Source: Thermoanaerobaculia bacterium
Lineage (GTDB): Bacteria > Acidobacteriota > Thermoanaerobaculia > Gp7-AA8
Reading direction: 5' to 3'
Length of the DNA: 64,000 nucleotides
Assembly (NCBI GenBank): GCA_035525215.1
Contig: DATLEY010000161.1
Coordinates: 8,483 to 72,482, forward strand
Under the pieces are notes generated by a model. The model had not been told where the DNA came from, did not search any database, and saw only the letters and a program-made list of their open reading frames with translations. A program made the translations under genes and the position numbers. The first letter of the stretch is position 1; each line of letters begins with the position of its first letter. Shown here one piece after another: positions 4,640-54,032 of this stretch.

Positions 4640-5476
4640 TCATCGCTCCGACTCCAGCCTCTCAAGAACCGCCCGGAGCGCCGAGATCACCTCTTCCCGC
4701 TCCACCTCCGCTTTCCTGAACTTCAGGCTGAGCGTGAACGGCAGACTCTTGTCGTGCAGGTCGTACGAGTAATGCTTCGGGCGCCCCGCCTTTTTGACTT
4801 CCGGCTTCCGGGAGGTCGCTTTCCGGACCTCCGCCCGGCCGATCTCTCCGCGGCCGAACCTCTCGACCAGCATCTCCATCTCTTCTTCAGACCCGGCCCT
4901 CGCGATCTGCACCAGGACGGACTTGTTCGAGATGCCGGCTTCCCGGCAGAGCACCCGGATCCGGTCGGGAATCTCATTGAGCTGCAGGGTCTCGGTGATG
5001 GTCGTCCGTGACTTCCCGATCACCTGGGAGATCTTCTCGTGCGTGTACCCGAACTTCTCCTGGAGGAACTGGAAGCCTTCGGCCTCTTCGAATGCGGTGA
5101 GATCCTTCCGCTGAATGTTCTCGATCAGGGCGATCTCGACGACTTCCCGGTCCGAGGCATCGAGCTCGATGGCGGGAATCTCGTCCAGCCCGGCGGCCGT
5201 GGCCGCGCGGAAGCGCCTCTCGCCGGAGATGATCTGGTAGCGGCTCGGACCGATCTGTCGGACCAGAATGGGCTCCAGGACGCCTTTTTCCCGGATGGAG
5301 GCAGTCAGATCCTCGAGATTGCCGACGTTGGTTCTCGGCTGCCCCGGGTTCGGCTCGATGATCGACAGCGGCAGCATCGCCCCGATCTGGGAAGAAGATC
5401 TGCGCGCGAGCTCATCGACGAAGTGCGCGTCGTGGCGCATCCGCGCACGCTCTGGAAGTCCTCGCTTGGGGGTCAT
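4640..5476 (-). CDS. parB: Chromosome partitioning protein ParB/Spo0J
   Basis: ParB N-terminal box (ISGERRFRAA) plus HTH (SQVIGKSRTTITETL). Directly downstream of parA. Confidence 0.85.
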   Translation of the reverse strand: MTPKRGLPERARMRHDAHFVDELARRSSSQIGAMLPLSIIEPNPGQPRTNVGNLEDLTASIREKGVLEPILVRQIGPSRYQIISGERRFRAATAAGLDEIPAIELDASDREVVEIALIENIQRKDLTAFEEAEGFQFLQEKFGYTHEKISQVIGKSRTTITETLQLNEIPDRIRVLCREAGISNKSVLVQIARAGSEEEMEMLVERFGRGEIGRAEVRKATSRKPEVKKAGRPKHYSYDLHDKSLPFTLSLKFRKAEVEREEVISALRAVLERLESER

Positions 5477-5541
5477 TTCGGCTCCTGGGTCTCGGGTCTG
5501 ACTGCATGTCTACGCTGCACGGCGGGCGGCACTCCCCCATC

Positions 5542-6297
5542 TCAGACTCGCGCGAGGATTTCCTCGGATAGCGAGTAATACTCCATCGCCCCGCTCGATC
5601 GGGGCGCAAACGTGAAGATCGACTCCTTGTACGCGGGACTCTCCTCGAGCCGGATCGATTTGGTGATCACGGTCTGGAAGAGCCGGTCTCCGAAGACGTC
5701 GCGAATCTGGTCGTGGATGTCCTTGGCCAGCGTGGTACGGCGGTCATGCATCGTGATGACTACGCCCAGCAGCTGAAGGTTCGGATTCGGCCGGCTCTTG
5801 ATCTTCTCGATGGTCTCGAGGAGATCGTCCGTTCCTTCGAGCGCAAAATAAGAGGATTGGATGGGAACCAGAACATGAGTCGAAGCGACGAGCGCGTTGA
5901 CCGTGATCATGCCGAGCGTCGGCGGAGTGTCGATGAACACGTAATCGTAGTCAGAGATGACCTCCGACATCTTGTCCTTCAGACGGTAATGGCCGTCGAT
6001 CTCCCCGACCAGCTTCGATTCGAGCTTGGCCAGGGCGATTCGCGAGGGGGCCAGATCGAGCTGCTCGATCGGGGTCTTCACGATCACCTCGCGGAGGCCG
6101 AGCTCCTCCGAGACCATCACGTCGAACATCGATTTACTGATCTGGCGCACATCGACATAACTCATCGTCGAGTTCGCCTGAGGGTCGAGATCGATCAGGA
6201 GCGTCTTGAAGCCCTTGTTGGCGACGGCCGCAGCGAGATTGATCGCGGTCGTCGTCTTTCCGACCCCGCCCTTCTGATTCGCAACGGTGATGATCAT
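5542..6297 (-). CDS. parA: Chromosome partitioning ATPase ParA/Soj
   Basis: MIITVANQKGGVGKTTTAINLAA deviant Walker A. The track ORF extends to 6369, but the conserved protein starts at the ATG at 6297. Confidence 0.85.
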   Translation of the reverse strand: MIITVANQKGGVGKTTTAINLAAAVANKGFKTLLIDLDPQANSTMSYVDVRQISKSMFDVMVSEELGLREVIVKTPIEQLDLAPSRIALAKLESKLVGEIDGHYRLKDKMSEVISDYDYVFIDTPPTLGMITVNALVASTHVLVPIQSSYFALEGTDDLLETIEKIKSRPNPNLQLLGVVITMHDRRTTLAKDIHDQIRDVFGDRLFQTVITKSIRLEESPAYKESIFTFAPRSSGAMEYYSLSEEILARV

Positions 6298-6456
6298 CGG
6301 GCAAGGTCCCGTATCGATGATTCCCGGCTCAATCGCGCGCCGGCAACGCCGCGAGTTTCGGGATCCCAATCATGGACGCAGAACACTGGCGGGATTCTAA
6401 CCGACGGGGCACTCGGAGAGCGACCGGATGTTGGATGAAATCCGGCGGCCCCTCCC

Positions 6457-22747: not shown

Positions 22748-23239
22748 ATGGAAACCGCGGATTCGACCGAATCGATGCGCCACGTCCCCCCGGCGGCCGA
22801 GCTGCTGCGACGGGTCGATGAGATCTACCGTAAACGTCTGGATGCCGCACTCGCGATCTATGAGACGGCGAGCGAGGATCAGAGGAAGAAGCTCGCAGCG
22901 CGGCTGATCGCGGTCGCGCGCTGGCTCGAGCGGATTCCGGAATCCCCGAGGGAAAATCGCGCGGGACACCGCGGCGAGTCGAACGATCCGCCGACGCGAA
23001 CGCGCGCCGCGCTGCAGATCGCCGTCGAAGCTCTCCATCGCATCGACACGGACCGGTTCGGACATCGGGCGCCATTCCATCGTTTCGAGCAGTCCGGAGC
23101 TGAACGTCTGTACGAAGCGGTACTCGCCGCTGGTTACTCGCTCTCGATCCTGCTCGACGAGATGCAGAAGATTGACCCGGACGTCTGGTGGAAGCTGCTC
23201 GACAGCTCGGCCCGCGACCAGATCCCGATGGTCGGTTGA
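22748..23239 (+). CDS. Hypothetical helical protein
   Basis: 163-aa ORF on the plus strand, divergent from accA. Its composition is protein-like (not low-complexity). The stop codon is embedded in the CTGAG-type repeat. It is the in-frame 3' part of track ORF 21854..23239. Confidence 0.4.
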   Translation: METADSTESMRHVPPAAELLRRVDEIYRKRLDAALAIYETASEDQRKKLAARLIAVARWLERIPESPRENRAGHRGESNDPPTRTRAALQIAVEALHRIDTDRFGHRAPFHRFEQSGAERLYEAVLAAGYSLSILLDEMQKIDPDVWWKLLDSSARDQIPMVG

Positions 23240-23310
23240 GTCCTGAGTGCTGAGTCCTGAGTGTGGCGCCGATCCAAGGCTGGGCGGCGAGACGCCGCCC
23301 GCCACTCTGC
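23237..23310. repeat. Composite intergenic repeat (CTGAG-unit block plus GC hairpin CTGGGCGGCGAGACGCCGCCCGCCACTCTG)
   Basis: TGAGTCCTGAGTGCTGAGTCCTGAGTG is followed by GGGCGGCG-aga-CGCCGCCC. The same two modules recur at 26593-26861 and 30748-31172. Confidence 0.7.
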
Positions 23311-25737: not shown

Positions 25738-25799
25738 GAATGAGAGGAGTGTAGCCGACTCGAGCCGGCGCCCTGCCTATCGCGATCCCGCTCCGACCG

Positions 25800-26561
25800 T
25801 CAGCGGGCGGGCACGTCGATGCCCAGCTCGGCCATCACCTTCTTCAGGTCGCTCCAGACGTCCTTTTTCGCGGAAGGGGTTCGAAGGAGGTAGGCCGGAT
25901 GGTACGTCGGCATCACCTTGATCCCGCGGTAGCTCTGCCACGCTCCACGAACCGAAGAGATGGTGACCGGCTTTCCGAGAAGGGTCTGCACGGCGAACTT
26001 TCCGAGGGTGACGATGACTCTCGGCTGGATCAGCTCGATCTGGCGGGTGATCCAGGGAGAGCAGGCGGCCAGCTCGTCCGGCTCGGGATTCCGGTTGTCG
26101 GGGGGGCGGCACTTGATCACGTTCGCGATGTAGACGTCATCCCGAGAAAGCGTCATCGCTCCGATGATGTCCGTGAGGAGCTTCCCAGCCCGTCCGACGA
26201 ACGGAGCCCCTTCGCTGTCCTCGTCGCGCCCAGGCGCCTCGCCGACGAACATCAGATCCGCGGTCGGGTTGCCTGTTCCGAAGACGACCTGAGTGCGCGT
26301 CGTCGAAAGCCTGCATCGGATGCAACGTTTCGCCGCATCCTCGACCGTCGTGAGGAGGGCGAGCGCGGCGACGTCCTCCGGGTTCGGAATGCCCGATCGG
26401 AGTCGTTCGGCAGCGGCGGGCGTGACGGAATCTTCGTCGATGGCGACGTCACCCGGGGGGATCGGGAGCGGAGTTTCGCCCGGTCTGGCCTTCGAGAGAT
26501 CGAGATGGGTGAATCCGAGGTCGCGAAGCAGCTCGAGCTCGGCGCGGAGTGCGGGATCCAT
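25800..26561 (-). CDS. Uracil-DNA glycosylase, family 4
   Basis: Motifs [16 protein letters not shown] and HPAYLLR are typical of family-4 UDG. Confidence 0.8.
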
Positions 26562-26592
26562 GGATCTGGAGTTTACGCGAGGGGGTGCGGAA

Positions 26593-26861
26593 AGTGGCGG
26601 GCGGCGTCTCGCCGCCCAGCCGTTAACGGCAATGCTGAAATACTCGGGCCTTTGTGGCGCGGGCTTTCAGCCGGCTGGCGCCACTCGGACGGCGGAGCCG
26701 TCCCAAGCGTTGCTACGTCCCGCTGATACCCGAAAGCGCGCTTCGCGTCGACGAACCAGCGCGCTTCGCGCATCGGCTTGCCTTTAACGCGGCTGGGCGG
26801 CGAGACGCCGCCCGCCACTCTGGCGCCGGCTTTCAGCCGGAGTACTCAGGACTCAGCACTC
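26593..26861. repeat. MITE-like element: ~40-bp terminal inverted repeats flanking ~145 bp, plus adjacent CTGAG-type block
   Basis: Left arm AGTGGCGGGCGGCGTCTCGCCGCCCAGCCGTTAACGGCAA (26593-26632). Right arm TTGCCTTTAACGCGGCTGGGCGGCGAGACGCCGCCCGCCACT (26778-26819). The two are near-perfect reverse complements. The CTGAGT-type block 26841-26861 overlaps the coaBC stop. Confidence 0.65.
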
Positions 26862-28045
26862 TTTCCCATCGCCGCGACGGCGCGATCGAGGATCCGGTTC
26901 GCGATGGTCAGCTTTGGAGCACGGGGGATCGGGAGGCTCTCTCCATTTCGATCGAACAGCGTGACGGCGTTCTGATCCGAATCGAAACCGATCGAAACAT
27001 CGCTCACATCGTTCGCCACGACCAGATCCACCTGCTTCCGGTCGAGCTTCTCGCGCGCGTTCGCTTCGACGTTCTCGGTCTCCGCGGCGAAGGCGATGAC
27101 GTATGCCCCATGGCCGTTGCCGCGCACCGCTTCCAGGATGTCGGGCGTGCGCGCCAGCTCCAGAGTCATTCCGCCCGAACCTGGGCTCTTCTTGATCTTC
27201 TGCGTGCTCGGCGCGCTGACGGTGAAATCGGCCACCGCCGCGGCCTTGATCAGGAGATCGCAGGCAGGAAGCGTCGCGATCACGGCGTCCCGCATCTCCG
27301 CGGCGGTCATCACCGGAACGACGCGCACGCCGTGCGGCGGAGCGAGCCGGGTCGGTCCGGAGACCAGCGTCACTTCCGCCCCCCTTCTCCGCGCGGCCGC
27401 GGCCAGGGCGTACCCCATCTTTCCCGACGAGCGGTTGGAGAGGTAGCGGACCGGGTCGATCGGCTCGCGCGTCGGGCCGGCCGTGACCACCACCCGTTTC
27501 CCCTCGAGATCGCGCGGCGCTGACTGCGCCATGACATGCTCGACGATGGCCGGCGGGTCGGGCATCCTTCCGACACCTTCATCGCCGCAGGCCAGAATGC
27601 CGGAGTCGGGATCGAGGATCTCGACGCCGCGGATGCGGAGCGTCTCGAGATTCTGCCGTACCGTCGGGTGTCCAAACATCGTGGTGTTCATCGCGGGAAC
27701 CACAACGATGGGAGCGCGGTGCGCGAGGGCGTAGGTTGTCAGGGCGTCGTCGGCGATTCCGACCGCGAGCTTCGCGATGAGGTTCGCGGTGGCGGGAGCG
27801 ACGAGGAGGAGATCCGCCCAGCGTGCGATCTCGATGTGATCGACCCCGCCCTGCGAGGGATCGCCCCACTGATCGGTGAGGACTCCGTGATTGGATACCG
27901 CGGAGAGGCTGAGTGGTGAAACGAAACGGGTGGCGTTCGCGGTCATGATGACGCGAACGTCCGCGCGGGCATCCCGGAGGCGCCTGACCAGGTCAGGCGT
28001 CTTGTACGCGGCGATGCCGCCCGAGATGCCGAGTACGATGTTCAC
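26846..28045 (-). CDS. coaBC: Bifunctional phosphopantothenoylcysteine decarboxylase/phosphopantothenate-cysteine ligase
   Basis: N-terminal flavoprotein domain (ILGISGGIAAYK) and a C-terminal CoaB domain. 399 aa. Confidence 0.9.
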   Translation of the reverse strand: MNIVLGISGGIAAYKTPDLVRRLRDARADVRVIMTANATRFVSPLSLSAVSNHGVLTDQWGDPSQGGVDHIEIARWADLLLVAPATANLIAKLAVGIADDALTTYALAHRAPIVVVPAMNTTMFGHPTVRQNLETLRIRGVEILDPDSGILACGDEGVGRMPDPPAIVEHVMAQSAPRDLEGKRVVVTAGPTREPIDPVRYLSNRSSGKMGYALAAAARRRGAEVTLVSGPTRLAPPHGVRVVPVMTAAEMRDAVIATLPACDLLIKAAAVADFTVSAPSTQKIKKSPGSGGMTLELARTPDILEAVRGNGHGAYVIAFAAETENVEANAREKLDRKQVDLVVANDVSDVSIGFDSDQNAVTLFDRNGESLPIPRAPKLTIANRILDRAVAAMGKSAES

Positions 28046-30696: not shown

Positions 30697-30747
30697 GATT
30701 CAACCTCCTGGTTTGCGGAGGTTATTGAGAGCAACTCCCCTGCCATG

Positions 30748-31172
30748 AGGGAGAGTGCTGAGTCCTGAGTGCTGAGCCTGAGTGCTGAGCCTGAGTGGCT
30801 GAGTCCTGAGTGCTGAGCCTGAGTGCTGAGCCCTGAGGGGCGAGTGCTGAGTCCTGAGGGGCGAGTGCTGAGTGCTGAGGGGGCCAGAGCTGAGTCCTGA
30901 GTAGCTCTGGGCGGCCCGGGCCGGCACGCCTACTCCTGAGTGCAGTAGGGGCGGCGGACTGAACCGTTGGCCTTCAAGCTCCGGAGCCGGCCGAAACCGG
31001 GGGAACTCCGCTCAACCCACCTCAGGACTTACCAAGCGCTCAGGACTCATCCCCTCGGCACTCTTACTCAGCACTCAGCACTCGATCCTCAGCACTCAGG
31101 ACTCTCACTCAGCACTCAGAACTCGTCCCTCAGCACTCTCACTCAGCACTCGATCCTCAGTACTCTTCCTTA
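30748..31172. repeat. Large imperfect palindromic array of 7-8-bp CTGAG(T/C)(G/C)C units
   Basis: About 19 CTGAG units in 30752-30905. About 11 reverse-complement CTCAG units in 31040-31170. These flank a ~115-bp unique core. Fills the ykgJ-M48 intergenic spacer. Confidence 0.8.
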
Positions 31173-46571: not shown

Positions 46572-47240
46572 TCAGTTCCGCGAATTCGAATCCGATTCTA
46601 ACGCGTCTTCGGCGACTCCCGCCTCCGATTGCCGATTCTCGCCGTCGAGCGGCAGGATCTCCTGCGCGGCCGATGCCGGCGACAGCAGCTCTTCGGCCAG
46701 ACTCTCTCCGAGGATCTCGCTGAACTCTTCCAGCCGGGGAAGGTCCTGAATCGACTCGAGGCCGAAGTGGAGGAGGAAGTCGCGGGTGGTTCGATAGAGG
46801 AAGGGGCTTCCCACGACATTCTTCCGTCCGGCGATTTTGATCATCTTCCGGTCGAGGAGAGTGCGCACGACGCCGGTCGCATTGACGCCACGGATATCGC
46901 TGATCTCGGGGGCCGTCACCGGCTGTCGATAGGCGATGATGGCCAGAGTCTCGAGGGCGGCCATGGAAAGGCGGCCCTCGTTTTTCCGGGCGAAAAATTT
47001 ACGCAGATGAGGGTCCAGATCCGCGCGGGTGGCGAAGCGATAGCCACCCGCCGCCTTCTCCACGACGAATCCCCCCTCCCGCGCCAGGAAGGCCTGCTCG
47101 ATCTCCAGGAGCATCGCGTCGATGCCCTCTTTCTCTTCGCCGGGGAAGGCTTCGTAGAGATCTTCGATTTTGACCGGCTCGCCGGAGACGAAGAGGATGG
47201 CCTCGATCGCGGCGCGGAGTTCGGTCGGTGTCATCGTCAT
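46572..47240 (-). CDS. scpB: Segregation and condensation protein B
   Basis: ScpB winged-helix sequence (EAILFVSGEPV…). Confidence 0.85.
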   Translation of the reverse strand: MTMTPTELRAAIEAILFVSGEPVKIEDLYEAFPGEEKEGIDAMLLEIEQAFLAREGGFVVEKAAGGYRFATRADLDPHLRKFFARKNEGRLSMAALETLAIIAYRQPVTAPEISDIRGVNATGVVRTLLDRKMIKIAGRKNVVGSPFLYRTTRDFLLHFGLESIQDLPRLEEFSEILGESLAEELLSPASAAQEILPLDGENRQSEAGVAEDALESDSNSRN

Positions 47241-47264
47241 TCGGTCGGGTCCTCGGTCTGATGA

Positions 47265-48092
47265 TCAGTGGTCGTACAGGTTGAACTGCGCGGGATCGAT
47301 CTCCCTCTCTACGCGGTGAATCAGGATCTCGGCGAACGCTTCCCCCTGGCGAAGAGAGACGCCCCCGAGCCGCACGAGCTCGAGCGTCGCCAGAAAGATC
47401 ACCACCAGCTCGGCGCGATCCCTCCCCTCCAGGTACCAGTTCAACCGTAGAGGCGTCGTCTCCGTGAGAACCGTGTAGAGCTCCCTCATCTTGTCGGAGA
47501 CCTTGTAGACGGCGCGTTTCAGCTCGATCGCGTCGGGATGATCGTAGCGATAGCGTTTGATCGCCGAGCGGAAGGCGTCGATCAGGTCGAAGAGAGAAAC
47601 CTCGCTCATATCGAGCTCGCGGGTCTCGGTACCGGGGAGCGGTGACGGAGGCCTGGACCAGACGCCCATCCGGACGACATCCACCTCCGCGAAGCTCTCG
47701 GCCACGGCCTTGTATCGCTGGTACTCCAGCAGGCGGTCGACCAGCTCCGCGCGGGGATCCGTGGAATCGTCCCCCTCCTCGCCGCGCGGAAGCAGCATCT
47801 TCGACTTGATGTGAATCAGGAGCGCCGCGATGTAGACGTAATCCGCCGCGACATCGAGGTCCAGCTCGGCCATCGAGTCGAGATAGGTGTTGTACTGGTC
47901 CGTGATCAGGACGATCGGGATGTCGTAGATGTCGATCTTATGCTTGCGGATCAGGTGAAGGAGGAGATCGAGCGGCCCTTCGAACGAGGGAAGTGAGACG
48001 CGGTAGCTCTCTTCTGCCGCGGCGTCGAGGGGACTCTCATCGGGCTCGAGCTCGGGGAGAAGGTCGGGTTGAAGGGTTTGGTCGATCATCAA
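47265..48092 (-). CDS. scpA: Segregation and condensation protein A
   Basis: FEGPLDLLLHLIRKHKIDIYDIPI, the canonical ScpA N-terminus. Confidence 0.85.
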   Translation of the reverse strand: MMIDQTLQPDLLPELEPDESPLDAAAEESYRVSLPSFEGPLDLLLHLIRKHKIDIYDIPIVLITDQYNTYLDSMAELDLDVAADYVYIAALLIHIKSKMLLPRGEEGDDSTDPRAELVDRLLEYQRYKAVAESFAEVDVVRMGVWSRPPSPLPGTETRELDMSEVSLFDLIDAFRSAIKRYRYDHPDAIELKRAVYKVSDKMRELYTVLTETTPLRLNWYLEGRDRAELVVIFLATLELVRLGGVSLRQGEAFAEILIHRVEREIDPAQFNLYDH

Positions 48093-49093
48093 AACTGCTC
48101 GTAGTCGAGCTTCATGGCCCGGCGCACCAATTCCAGAGTCTCGGTGCAGCGCTCTTTCGCCGCGCGATTCCCCGACCTCAGCACATCCCAGACCACGGAG
48201 GGATCCCGGTCGATTTTCTCACGCCTCTCCCGGATGGGCCGAAGCGCTTCGATCATGATCTCCGTCAGAAGCCTCTTGTCGTCGACGCAGCCGATCTGCG
48301 CCGTTCTGCACTCATGATCGACTCGGGCTGTGGTGGCGGGATCGGAGAGGAGGCGGTGGAACTGAAAAAGATTGCAGATGTCCGGATTGCCCGGATCTTT
48401 CCGCCGGATCCTGTTCGGGTCCGTAAACATGGTGCTCACGAGTTGACGGATCTCGTCCGCGCTGGCGGTCAGCCCGATGGTGTTTCCATAGGACTTCGAC
48501 ATCTTCCTTCCGTCCAGCCCCGGCACCTTCGGCGTTTCGGTCAGAAGGGGCTGGGGCTCGGGAAAGACGTCTCCGTAGAGATGGTTGAAGCGTCGCGCGA
48601 CCTCGCGCGTGAGCTCGAGATGAGCGACCTGATCCTCTCCGACCGGAACGAAGTTCGCCCGGTAGACGATGATGTCGGCGGTCTGGAGCAGCGGATATCC
48701 GAGGAAGCCGTACGTATTCAAGTCGCGGTCGGCCAGCTGCTGCTGCTGTTCCTTGAATGTCGGCACTCGCTCCAGCCAGGGGAGCGGCGTGATCATCGAA
48801 AGGAGCAGGTGAAGCTCGGCGTGTTCCGGAACCTGGGACTGGACGAAGATCGTGGCTATCGCGGGATCCATCCCCGCCGCCAGCCAATCGGCCACGGCAT
48901 CGTAGGTGGCGTCCTTGACCCGCGCCGGATCTGCGTAATCCGAAGTGAGGGCGTGCCAGTCGGCGACGAAATAAAAACAGCGATAGGAGTCCTGAAGGCG
49001 AACCCAGTTCCGAATCGCTCCGAAGTAGTTTCCGAGATGAACGCGGCCGGTAGGCCGCAGTCCGCTGAGGACGATCGCCTGCTGCTGGGTCAC
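48089..49093 (-). CDS. trpS: Tryptophan--tRNA ligase
   Basis: HLGNY (HIGH) and KMSKS motifs. GTG start. 334 aa. Confidence 0.9.
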   Translation of the reverse strand: MTQQQAIVLSGLRPTGRVHLGNYFGAIRNWVRLQDSYRCFYFVADWHALTSDYADPARVKDATYDAVADWLAAGMDPAIATIFVQSQVPEHAELHLLLSMITPLPWLERVPTFKEQQQQLADRDLNTYGFLGYPLLQTADIIVYRANFVPVGEDQVAHLELTREVARRFNHLYGDVFPEPQPLLTETPKVPGLDGRKMSKSYGNTIGLTASADEIRQLVSTMFTDPNRIRRKDPGNPDICNLFQFHRLLSDPATTARVDHECRTAQIGCVDDKRLLTEIMIEALRPIRERREKIDRDPSVVWDVLRSGNRAAKERCTETLELVRRAMKLDYEQF

Positions 49094-49189: not shown

Positions 49190-49680
49190 AGGATGGTCGA
49201 GGGTTCAGGGTAGAGGAGCGAGGGAAGAGGGGAGAAGCATTCGCGGCGGACCTGCCGCGCAGCGTGCCCCCGCAACTCAAACGACACGGGTCCCGGCTCG
49301 TGAGTCAAAGGCCGTTCACGGGCACGGGCGCGTTCACGTTCACGGGTCGGAGGCAGGAACAGGTCATTCAGAGGCCGCACGGGAGGAGGAGGTGGCAAGA
49401 CGATTGGTCTCGCGGCCGAAGAATCTCAGAATGCGCAGGCCGTCATCGGGTTCTTGTGCCGGTGCACTCGCATCGTCCGAACGCGTCTGGACGTGGATAA
49501 GAACCCGACAGCGATCATCGCGGCTGAGATTCTTCGGCCGCGACGCCAGCTCATATTCTGCACGGCTGGCGCGTGCGGCCTCTGAATGACCCGCCCTCCC
49601 CGCGCAATTCCGCTTCTCCCTCTTCCTTTCGCTCCTCTCCCCTCTCCCTCTTCCATCGCTCCTCTACCCTCTTCCATCCC
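49190..49680. repeat. Nested imperfect palindrome with mirror polypurine/polypyrimidine outer arms (recG-trpS spacer)
   Basis: Outer arms: GGGTAGAGGAGCGAGGGAAGAGGGGAGAAGC (49207-49237) pairs with the complement in 49610-49680. A perfect 20-bp inverted repeat GGTCATTCAGAGGCCGCACG lies at 49361-49380 and 49571-49590. An inner 21-bp inverted repeat lies at 49408-49428 and 49523-49543. Confidence 0.8.
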
Positions 49681-49681
49681 C

Positions 49682-53664: not shown

Positions 53665-54032
<368 letters not shown>

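Follow-up and report, generated by a model that had tools for sequence, protein, structure and literature searches.

Tagged REP repeats are described as a GTAG or GTGG tetranucleotide that lies 0–2 nt before a fully paired stem of 7–20 bp, in which the first four pairs are G+C-rich and the loop is 2–5 nt long (PMC6006769). Twenty-four GTAG families have been surveyed, and the GTGG form of the tag is found in the GTAG-20 family of Opitutus terrae; at the time of that survey, in 2013, GTAG repeats were recorded in Proteobacteria, Cyanobacteria, Chloroflexi, and the PVC group (PMC3733652). The commonest arrangement is the head-to-head dimer with the tags outside, and heterodimers with differing stems as well as tandem clusters also occur. 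Dimer spacers may have complementary ends or contain small stem-loops, and some dimers are split by inserted DNA (PMC3733652). The repeats lie within about 20 bp of the 3′ ends of ORFs, between convergent or co-directional genes, and in-frame copies are present in helicase and repair genes (PMC3733652).

Here we describe an inverted pair of hairpins between coaBC and a UDG-superfamily gene in a 64,000-nt stretch of DNA from a Thermoanaerobaculia bacterium (the whole analyzed stretch is referred to as the window). We conclude, with a probability of roughly 70%, that the arms of the pair are copies of a GTAG/GTGG-tagged REP of about 30–40 nt and form a head-to-head homodimer in a BIME-like mosaic. 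The repeat unit, which we call H, is assigned to a GTGG-tagged REP family on structural and distributional criteria, and all arrangement features reported for the tagged REPs (PMC3733652) recur for it. The H repeat of Acidobacteriota is a new sequence in a known REP class: the kind of element is ordinary, and the host group is new.

The hairpin pair in the coaBC–UDG spacer

The coaBC and UDG genes are both transcribed right to left and are separated by 284 nt (26562–26845; 68% GC). This spacer contains an inverted repeat (26593–26622 and 26790–26819) whose 30-nt arms are 100% complementary across a gap of 167 nt. By eye, the arms reach inward to 26632 and 26778 (AGCCG-TTAACGGCAA versus AGCCGCGTTAAAGGCAA), giving arms of 40 and 42 nt with a gap of 145 nt, and this extension needs two indels. 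The original prediction, of two inverted sequences of about 40 bp lying 145 bp apart, is borne out in this form. The features of the region are as follows (window positions, strand in brackets).

23277–23306 (−): REP-like unit H, solo copy C; 29/30, 1 mismatch; covariance model 49.5 bits
25800–26561 (−): UDG-superfamily gene (family-4 UDG), by Pfam
26562–26592 (−): UDG-proximal stretch (TTTCCGCACCCCCTCGCGTAAACTCCAGATCC), outside the repeat; conserved in the relative L006, 39 nt at 90%
26593–26622 (+): REP-like unit H, copy A (AGTGGCGGGCGGCGTCTCGCCGCCCAGCCG); covariance model 52.5 bits; extension TTAACGGCAA to 26632
26633–26777 (no strand given): spacer of the A/B dimer, a mosaic of smaller palindromes
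26654–26684: double-foot palindrome S1 GTGGCGCGGGCTTTCAGCCGGCTGGCGCCAC, within the A/B spacer
26687–26703: hairpin GGACGGCGGAGCCGTCC, within the A/B spacer
26735–26747 and 26758–26770: AGCGCGCTTCGCG, two copies, within the A/B spacer
26790–26819 (−): REP-like unit H, copy B; covariance model 53.1 bits; extension to 26778
26821–26840 (+): module S, second copy (TGGCGCCGGCTTTCAGCCGG); small hairpin, between copy B and the end of coaBC
26844–26861 (−): heptamer block GAGTGCT-GAGTCCT-GAGT, encoding CoaBC KSAES and the TGA stop
26846–28045 (−): coaBC, by Pfam

The H unit reads AGTGGC-GGGCGGCG-TCT-CGCCGCCC-AGCC, or (A)AGTGGC-GGGCGGCG-TCT-CGCCGCCC-AGCC(C) in its longer form. A GTGG tag at the 5′ side is separated by one base from an 8-bp G+C stem with a TCT loop, after which comes the 3′ tail AGCC. 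The perfect 8-bp GC stem that had been noticed inside each arm is confirmed as GGGCGGCG-TCT/AGA-CGCCGCCC with a 3-nt loop; pairing of the flanking bases extends the stem to 11 bp, with a bulged A. Folded as RNA, the hairpin has a predicted free energy of −22.9 kcal/mol; the DNA form reaches about −15 kcal/mol. Every term of the REP descriptor is present in H: the tag lies 1 nt before the stem, the stem has 8 bp, and the loop has 3 nt. A-GTGG-C precedes the stem in all 12 of the 12 H-type copies, including L016mac. The H′ variants described below also have the GTGG tag, and the variants H″ and L002v are without it (GTTATGG and GTGTCG).

The H 30-mer, with up to 3 mismatches allowed, occurs three times in the window versus 0.00 times expected from 100 dinucleotide shuffles, and all three copies lie within 3.6 kb of the 64 kb. 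Copy A is antisense to the transcripts of coaBC and UDG, with 31 nt between it and the downstream ATG of UDG. Copy B is in sense orientation, 26 nt past the stop of coaBC, the upstream gene of the co-directional pair. Copy C is also in sense orientation; it lies 4 nt past the priA stop, between convergent genes, and adjoins the heptamer block at 23238–23262 (+). This is the hairpin that had been placed at 23280–23309, and we find it at 23277–23306 (−) with 1 mismatch.

In the A/B pair the GTGG tags are outermost, and the spacer is unusually long at 145–167 nt. Module S (GTGGCGCSGGCTTTCAGCCGG; 26654–26684 and 26821–26840) is the second small palindrome of the coaBC–UDG spacer, also has GTGG at its start, and has the opposite orientation in L006. 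The internal direct repeat GGCGCSGGCTTTCAGCCGG of the original prediction does exist in two copies (26656–26674 and 26822–26840), the second of which lies outside the right arm and not in the interior. The view that the interior has no ORF holds loosely, in that nothing suggests genes, but mechanical ORFs are listed across the GC-rich spacer. The CTGAGT-type block said to cover the coaBC stop was recovered as GAGTGCTGAGTCCTGAGT; it contains the stop codon at 26846–26848 and encodes ...GKSAES*.

For both strands, the entire spacer is predicted to fold into a single long hairpin (−172.5 and −173 kcal/mol; z = −7.7 and −8.0). The equal stability arises because the inverted repeat is at the DNA level, and it carries no strand information. 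The 3′ tails after the hairpin (AGCCGCGUUAAAGG for B and AGCCUUGGAUCGG for C) have no U-tract. An intrinsic (Rho-independent) terminator was considered and rejected, given the missing U-tract and a consensus scan that found no terminator-like sites in 26300–27100. A consensus scan for promoters and a scan for tRNA and tmRNA also returned nothing in the region. The UDG-proximal stretch at 26562–26592 is likely the promoter or 5′ leader of UDG.

Copies in other genomes and the history of the spacer

A 28-mer of H was scanned over 185,579 species-representative genomes. Its exact sequence is found in one other genome only, the uncultured Acidobacteriota MAG MFD03899.bin.2.39, at five places with flanks unlike those in the window, and near-identical H variants are present on contigs related to this MAG. 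Five exact 28-mers (plus variants) in the sole whole genome scanned are far below the numbers of classical REP families. We derived a covariance model from 18 copies and variants. It gave 16 matches at E ≤ 0.0016 in relatives' loci; in the window it matched only copies A, B, and C, whereas more copies are present in the MAG loci and two related contigs (L016 and L018). Viral contigs gave no match to H. A scan of metagenomes with a free loop gave five matches that were set aside as chance in G+C-rich DNA, with other loops, no GTGG, and an apparently coding context.

The arrangements of H include inverted dimers and clusters (the window pair, an array in L004, and an H/H″ pair in L016) as well as single copies (copy C and a solo copy in L001). 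L004 has an array of 2.8 repeats of a 166-nt unit, and every unit contains H together with a variant, H′ (GCACGGCG/CGCCGTGC), in the opposite orientation. Downstream of a macB-like gene, H is found at the orthologous site in L005, in its 82%-identical variant L002, and in L016, where H and the inverted variant H″ (GGCCGCCG/CGGCGGCC) are about 50 nt apart. Copies near the 3′ end of an upstream ORF include B (26 nt), C (4 nt), and those of L001, L005, and L016, which are 18–73 nt past stops. Copies are mostly in sense orientation just past stop codons (B, C, L001, L005/L002/L016, and L004), although the ~6 independent sense loci and 1 antisense locus are too few for significance. Because copies are found solo, paired, in tandem, and within a gene, with unrelated flanks, the recurring unit is the hairpin of about 30–40 nt. 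H is a multi-copy sequence, and at least two genomes carry it in identical form at loci that are not homologous.

Two other interpretations of these repeats were rejected. A CRISPR array or remnant does not fit copies that are inverted and lie 167 nt and 3.3 kb apart, nor the L004 array, which repeats its "spacers" too. The 166-nt direct-repeat spacing in the window equals the period of the L004 array (166 nt), and this is a coincidence and not common descent, because only the hairpin aligns between the two.

The stem variants GCACGGCG/CGCCGTGC, GGCCGGCG/CGCCGGCC, and GGCCGCCG/CGGCGGCC differ by compensatory changes. Three stem pairs are altered on both sides, the covariation score was reached by 0 of 500 shuffles, and the paired cells amount to 91% versus 37–62% when the partners are slid. 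At the level of aligned sequence, these comparisons show an H stem that appears to have been kept through compensatory changes; the covariation is support and not proof, because the rows are related and few.

H also lies in frame within hrpB, at L003 3263–3291, L016 1971–1999, and L018 4249–4277. The L003 copy is located between the HA2 and HrpB_C domains and encodes PSGGRRLAAQPG; the three copies encode SGGRR(L/P)A(A/G)QP, which adds ~10 residues to the linker. The copy is present in the hrpB orthologues of L016 and L018 (~80% identity), and ~10–12 residues are missing at the site in those of L017 and L020 (~80%) and in all more distant ones. This presence and absence departs from the identity matrix, which implies either one gain with losses or repeated insertion at one site. 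In L018 a two-sided stem change (GGCCGGCG/CGCCGGCC) keeps the hairpin and alters the protein from A to G. In L016 and L018 the 5′ tag and arm have undergone short tandem duplication, and GTGGGGGCGG in the L017 hrpB could be a remnant of H. The copies in hrpB clearly exemplify a DNA or RNA hairpin kept within a coding gene at amino-acid cost.

The gene order yicC-gmk-rpoZ-coaBC-UDG-priA is kept in relatives, and we compared the coaBC–UDG spacer among them (identity of CoaBC to that of the window is given).

Window: spacer 284 nt; H pair and small palindromes
L006 (CoaBC 94%): spacer 231 nt; damaged copy A only
L019 (CoaBC 73%): spacer 203 nt; inverted arrays of a different heptamer
L012–L015 (CoaBC ~72%): spacer 80–94 nt; no H unit

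L006 and the window share 92% nucleotide identity through coaBC up to 26841 and 88% from 26682 through UDG. In between, 158 nt of the window including copy B correspond to an unrelated 122 nt in L006 that consist largely of heptamer repeats. At the copy-A site of L006, 12 nt have been lost within the hairpin (CGGCT/GCCGCCCCCCAC). Since L006 shares the copy-A half only, the 227-nt block was not gained or lost as one piece. H comes and goes between close relatives.

The neighboring UDG–priA spacer also varies, with 62 nt in the window (25738–25799) versus about 300 nt in L006 (2462–2768), and this length difference is a further sign of fast spacer turnover in the lineage. In the 73% relative, the same spacer (L019 3060–3160) holds four G+C hairpins with the GCG-TCT-CGC loop core seen in H. 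They have other stems and no clear GTGG, are arranged two per orientation in a nested palindrome, and score E = 0.008–0.3 with the model. A composite transposon, with A and C inverted around UDG-priA, was rejected because relatives that lack the hairpin still have coaBC, UDG, and priA in synteny.

Other spacers of the window and competing explanations

The heptamer block at the coaBC stop belongs to a second repeat family. The tandem heptamers GAGTGCT/GAGTCCT, the arms of a further inverted repeat, and the corresponding arrays of relatives are located as follows.

23238–23262 (+): tandem heptamers
26844–26861 (−): tandem heptamers
30753–30902 (+): tandem heptamers
31066–31165 (−): tandem heptamers
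49207–49231 and 49646–49670: purine-rich 25-mer arms, 96% complementary, with nested inverted repeats
L012 6057–6200: array of a relative
L013 6031–6108: array of a relative
L015 6019–6185 and 8619–8757: arrays of a relative
L019 2084–2286 and 5660–5782: arrays of a relative

An 18-mer of the heptamers has 14 matches in the window versus 0.09 expected, and the family is separate from H. Read on the same strand as the upstream gene, the arrays supply TGA in each of the three frames. Array sequence overlaps two stop codons, that of coaBC and that of a plus-strand ORF ending at 23239. The CoaBC tail is 4–6 aa longer than in the ~72% relatives. In relatives, different lineage-specific 7–8-nt tandem arrays occupy the same spacers and are inverted at both spacer ends; they are of the GGGTCTAG type (with TAG) in L012, L013, and L015 and of the GTTGTCT/GTTGTTT type in L019. 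These arrays are reminiscent of the STRR repeats of cyanobacteria.

Three spacers between co-directional minus-strand genes fold as giant hairpins: 26562–26845, 30697–31169, and 49205–49681 (z = −8.9, −11.3, and −11.9). Eleven other spacers of the window have no giant hairpin (z > −2.4). The arms are unrelated in sequence, consisting of REP units in one spacer, heptamer arrays in another, and the purine-rich 25-mer in the third, whose neighbors are the recG stop on one side and a class-I (Trp/Tyr-type) tRNA synthetase gene on the other. The pair may be viewed as one module of an undescribed intergenic design in a Thermoanaerobaculia-like clade, in which co-directional spacers become single giant hairpins whose arms are either GTGG-tagged REPs or 7–8-nt arrays with a stop in every frame (GAGTSCT here, GGGTCTAG in L012, L013, and L015, and GTTGTCT in L019). 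We regard this view as possible, if unlikely. If true, the design would bring the upstream stop beside the next start and could act as a processing or insulating device.

It has also to be asked if the hairpins are host-encoded and non-mobile, that is, 3′-end or attenuator structures or the site of a host protein, and identical by selection. Such a role would suit the sense orientation of most copies just past stop codons, the retention of the copy downstream of macB at an orthologous site in sequences ~82% identical overall, and the maintenance of the stem by compensatory changes. As an account of origin we consider it unlikely, because identical 29-mers at unrelated loci of two genomes require copying and not convergence. 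Furthermore, one copy lies within hrpB, where a terminator would be harmful, copy A is antisense, a U-tract is lacking, and relatives with the same gene order have no such hairpin in the orthologous spacer. Host use of the hairpins is compatible with co-opted REPs, and hence it competes with the REP reading for origin only.

The original prediction saw the locus as a 227-bp MITE, in which the 40-nt arms would be terminal inverted repeats for a DDE transposase and the block would move whole. Its size, its lack of coding capacity, and its inverted ends of 30–40 nt agree with the general form of such an element, and the spacer exceeds that of the ~72% relatives by about 200 nt. We nevertheless find this unit quite improbable. 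No target-site duplication is seen at the flanks (GGAA/AGTGGC... and ...GCCACT/CTGG); the interior has no second copy in the window, in the relatives' loci examined, or in L006; and the arm stands alone at 23277–23306 and has other partners and spacings elsewhere. The arms are hairpins in their own right and bear a GTGG tag at the 5′ side, a signature of REPs and not of IS ends. Empty sites had also been expected in relatives, but the difference from L006, a replacement of 158 nt by 122 nt, spans one arm only. Part of the prediction stands all the same: the arms are a dispersed repeat, the same hairpin is found past priA, and the region is non-coding and structured. What recurs is only the hairpin, and the 227-bp block is single-copy. 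Relatives do vary in spacer length (80–231 nt, versus 284 nt in the window) and some are without the hairpin, though not as presence or absence of the whole block, and the further copies foreseen were found for the 28-mer, in one other genome of the 185,579 representatives, and not for the interior in the loci examined.

A further account holds that whole-spacer palindromes arise by inverted duplication, through template switching or fold-back repair, as a general habit of the genome. It would explain why three spacers in the window are giant hairpins with quite different arms when other spacers are not, why relatives show the same design with other repeats, and why A and B share an extension of 10–12 nt that is missing at the orthologous A site of L006. 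It leaves the identical solo units at distant loci, in another genome, and in hrpB unexplained, and so it may account for B arising from A, but not for the family; overall we give it little credence.

A structured small RNA, also raised by the original prediction, or a cis-regulatory leader of UDG is extremely improbable, since the very stable fold predicted for both strands is explained by the inverted repeat in the DNA itself and is no stronger on one strand than on the other, no Rfam family is matched at the gathering threshold, and the interior is not conserved in the 94% relative and is absent in the ~72% relatives. Over the whole window, the sole Rfam match at the gathering threshold is a full-length bacterial class A RNase P RNA at 53666–54027 (−; 313 bits), and with a permissive E-value the best match in the region is Bp2_287 (15.5 bits versus a threshold of 70; E = 0.34). 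In annotation, the coaBC–UDG spacer should be given as repeat-derived and not be labelled a small-RNA gene or a transposon.

With the arms taken as tagged REPs, H may have been copied from place to place as a single-stranded DNA hairpin, the tag and the stem being read by a Y1 (HUH) transposase of the RAYT type. Gene conversion and slippage would then homogenize or erode the copies, and slippage as the route of erosion agrees with the loss of 12 nt from the L006 copy and with the duplication of the 5′ arm in L016 and L018. No Y1 transposase was found among 20 mid-sized window ORFs, which are housekeeping genes, or among the ORFs scanned in L001–L005, and no mobile-element genes were found among the window ORFs scanned. 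The window is housekeeping DNA (4640–6369 and 46572–48218), with parB, parA, a bifunctional nuclease, rapZ, hpf, HU, scpA/scpB, recG, and priA.

We infer three kinds of functional effect for H by analogy with the REPs of other bacteria, namely RNA stabilization, attenuation, and RNase III cleavage. H would be co-transcribed with the upstream gene, and B and C are predicted to form a very stable 3′ hairpin (−23 kcal/mol) that could stop exonucleases working from the 3′ end and reduce transcription running on from coaBC into UDG. Copy B may thereby end or stabilize the coaBC message, while the conserved 31 nt at the UDG start would carry UDG's own signals. In a read-through RNA, A and B could pair into a duplex of >30 bp, a plausible RNase III substrate.

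Comparison with described systems

Heptanucleotide tandem repeats of cyanobacteria, the STRR (Mazel et al. 1990), are reportedly confined to spacers and often lie near gene ends. Within this locus they resemble only the CTGAGTS block, which likewise consists of tandem 7-nt repeats restricted to spacers and is often close to the end of a gene. The two differ in sequence and in phylum, and the arrays here give a stop in three frames, overlap real stops, and bracket spacers in inverted orientation.

Bacterial MITEs such as Correia/NEMIS, ERIC, and RUP share with the pair a non-coding nature, a length of 70–300 bp, inverted ends, co-transcription, and long hairpins that RNase III can cut. Unlike the pair, they recur whole with target-site duplications and IS-like ends. 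The REPIN–RAYT systems of Pseudomonas fluorescens and E. coli are closer in design, as two inverted REPs form one long hairpin and movement is presumed to occur as single-stranded DNA through a Y1 transposase (PMC3116915, PMC3337134). However, REPINs form populations of near-identical doublets with a short conserved spacer, whereas the doublet described here is unique, has a long mosaic spacer, and is represented by only one half in a close relative. A REPIN was rejected on these grounds, as the 145–167-nt spacer has no second copy in the window or in the relatives' loci examined and L006 has the copy-A half only. The H pair is neither a REPIN population nor a MITE, because the defining features of both were looked for and were not found.

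The hrpB copies recall the Rickettsia palindromic elements (RPEs) and the intragenic REPs of Opitutus terrae, in which a palindrome lies in frame in a housekeeping gene and adds ~10 residues to a variable linker. RPEs differ in that they carry a CGTC tag and most are longer; in H, CGTC is found in the loop only, and the window has no intragenic copy.

The closest match is to the GTAG/GTGG REPs and BIMEs of E. coli, Pseudomonas, and Stenotrophomonas, which are G+C palindromes of 20–40 nt with an unpaired 5′ tetranucleotide tag adjoining the stem. H shares with them the single copies, head-to-head dimers, tandem clusters, heterodimers with differing stems, spacers that have complementary ends and small stem-loops, positions a few to tens of nt past stops between co-directional or convergent genes, and occasional in-frame copies in helicase and repair genes. 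It differs in a spacer of 145–167 nt versus the usual 20–100 bp of REP dimers, in a copy number that looks low (5 exact copies, one genome scanned), and in being a new sequence with an acidobacterial host. The H consensus extends the tagged REP-type repeats to one uncultured lineage of Acidobacteriota and provides a basis for counting copies and seeking the transposase.
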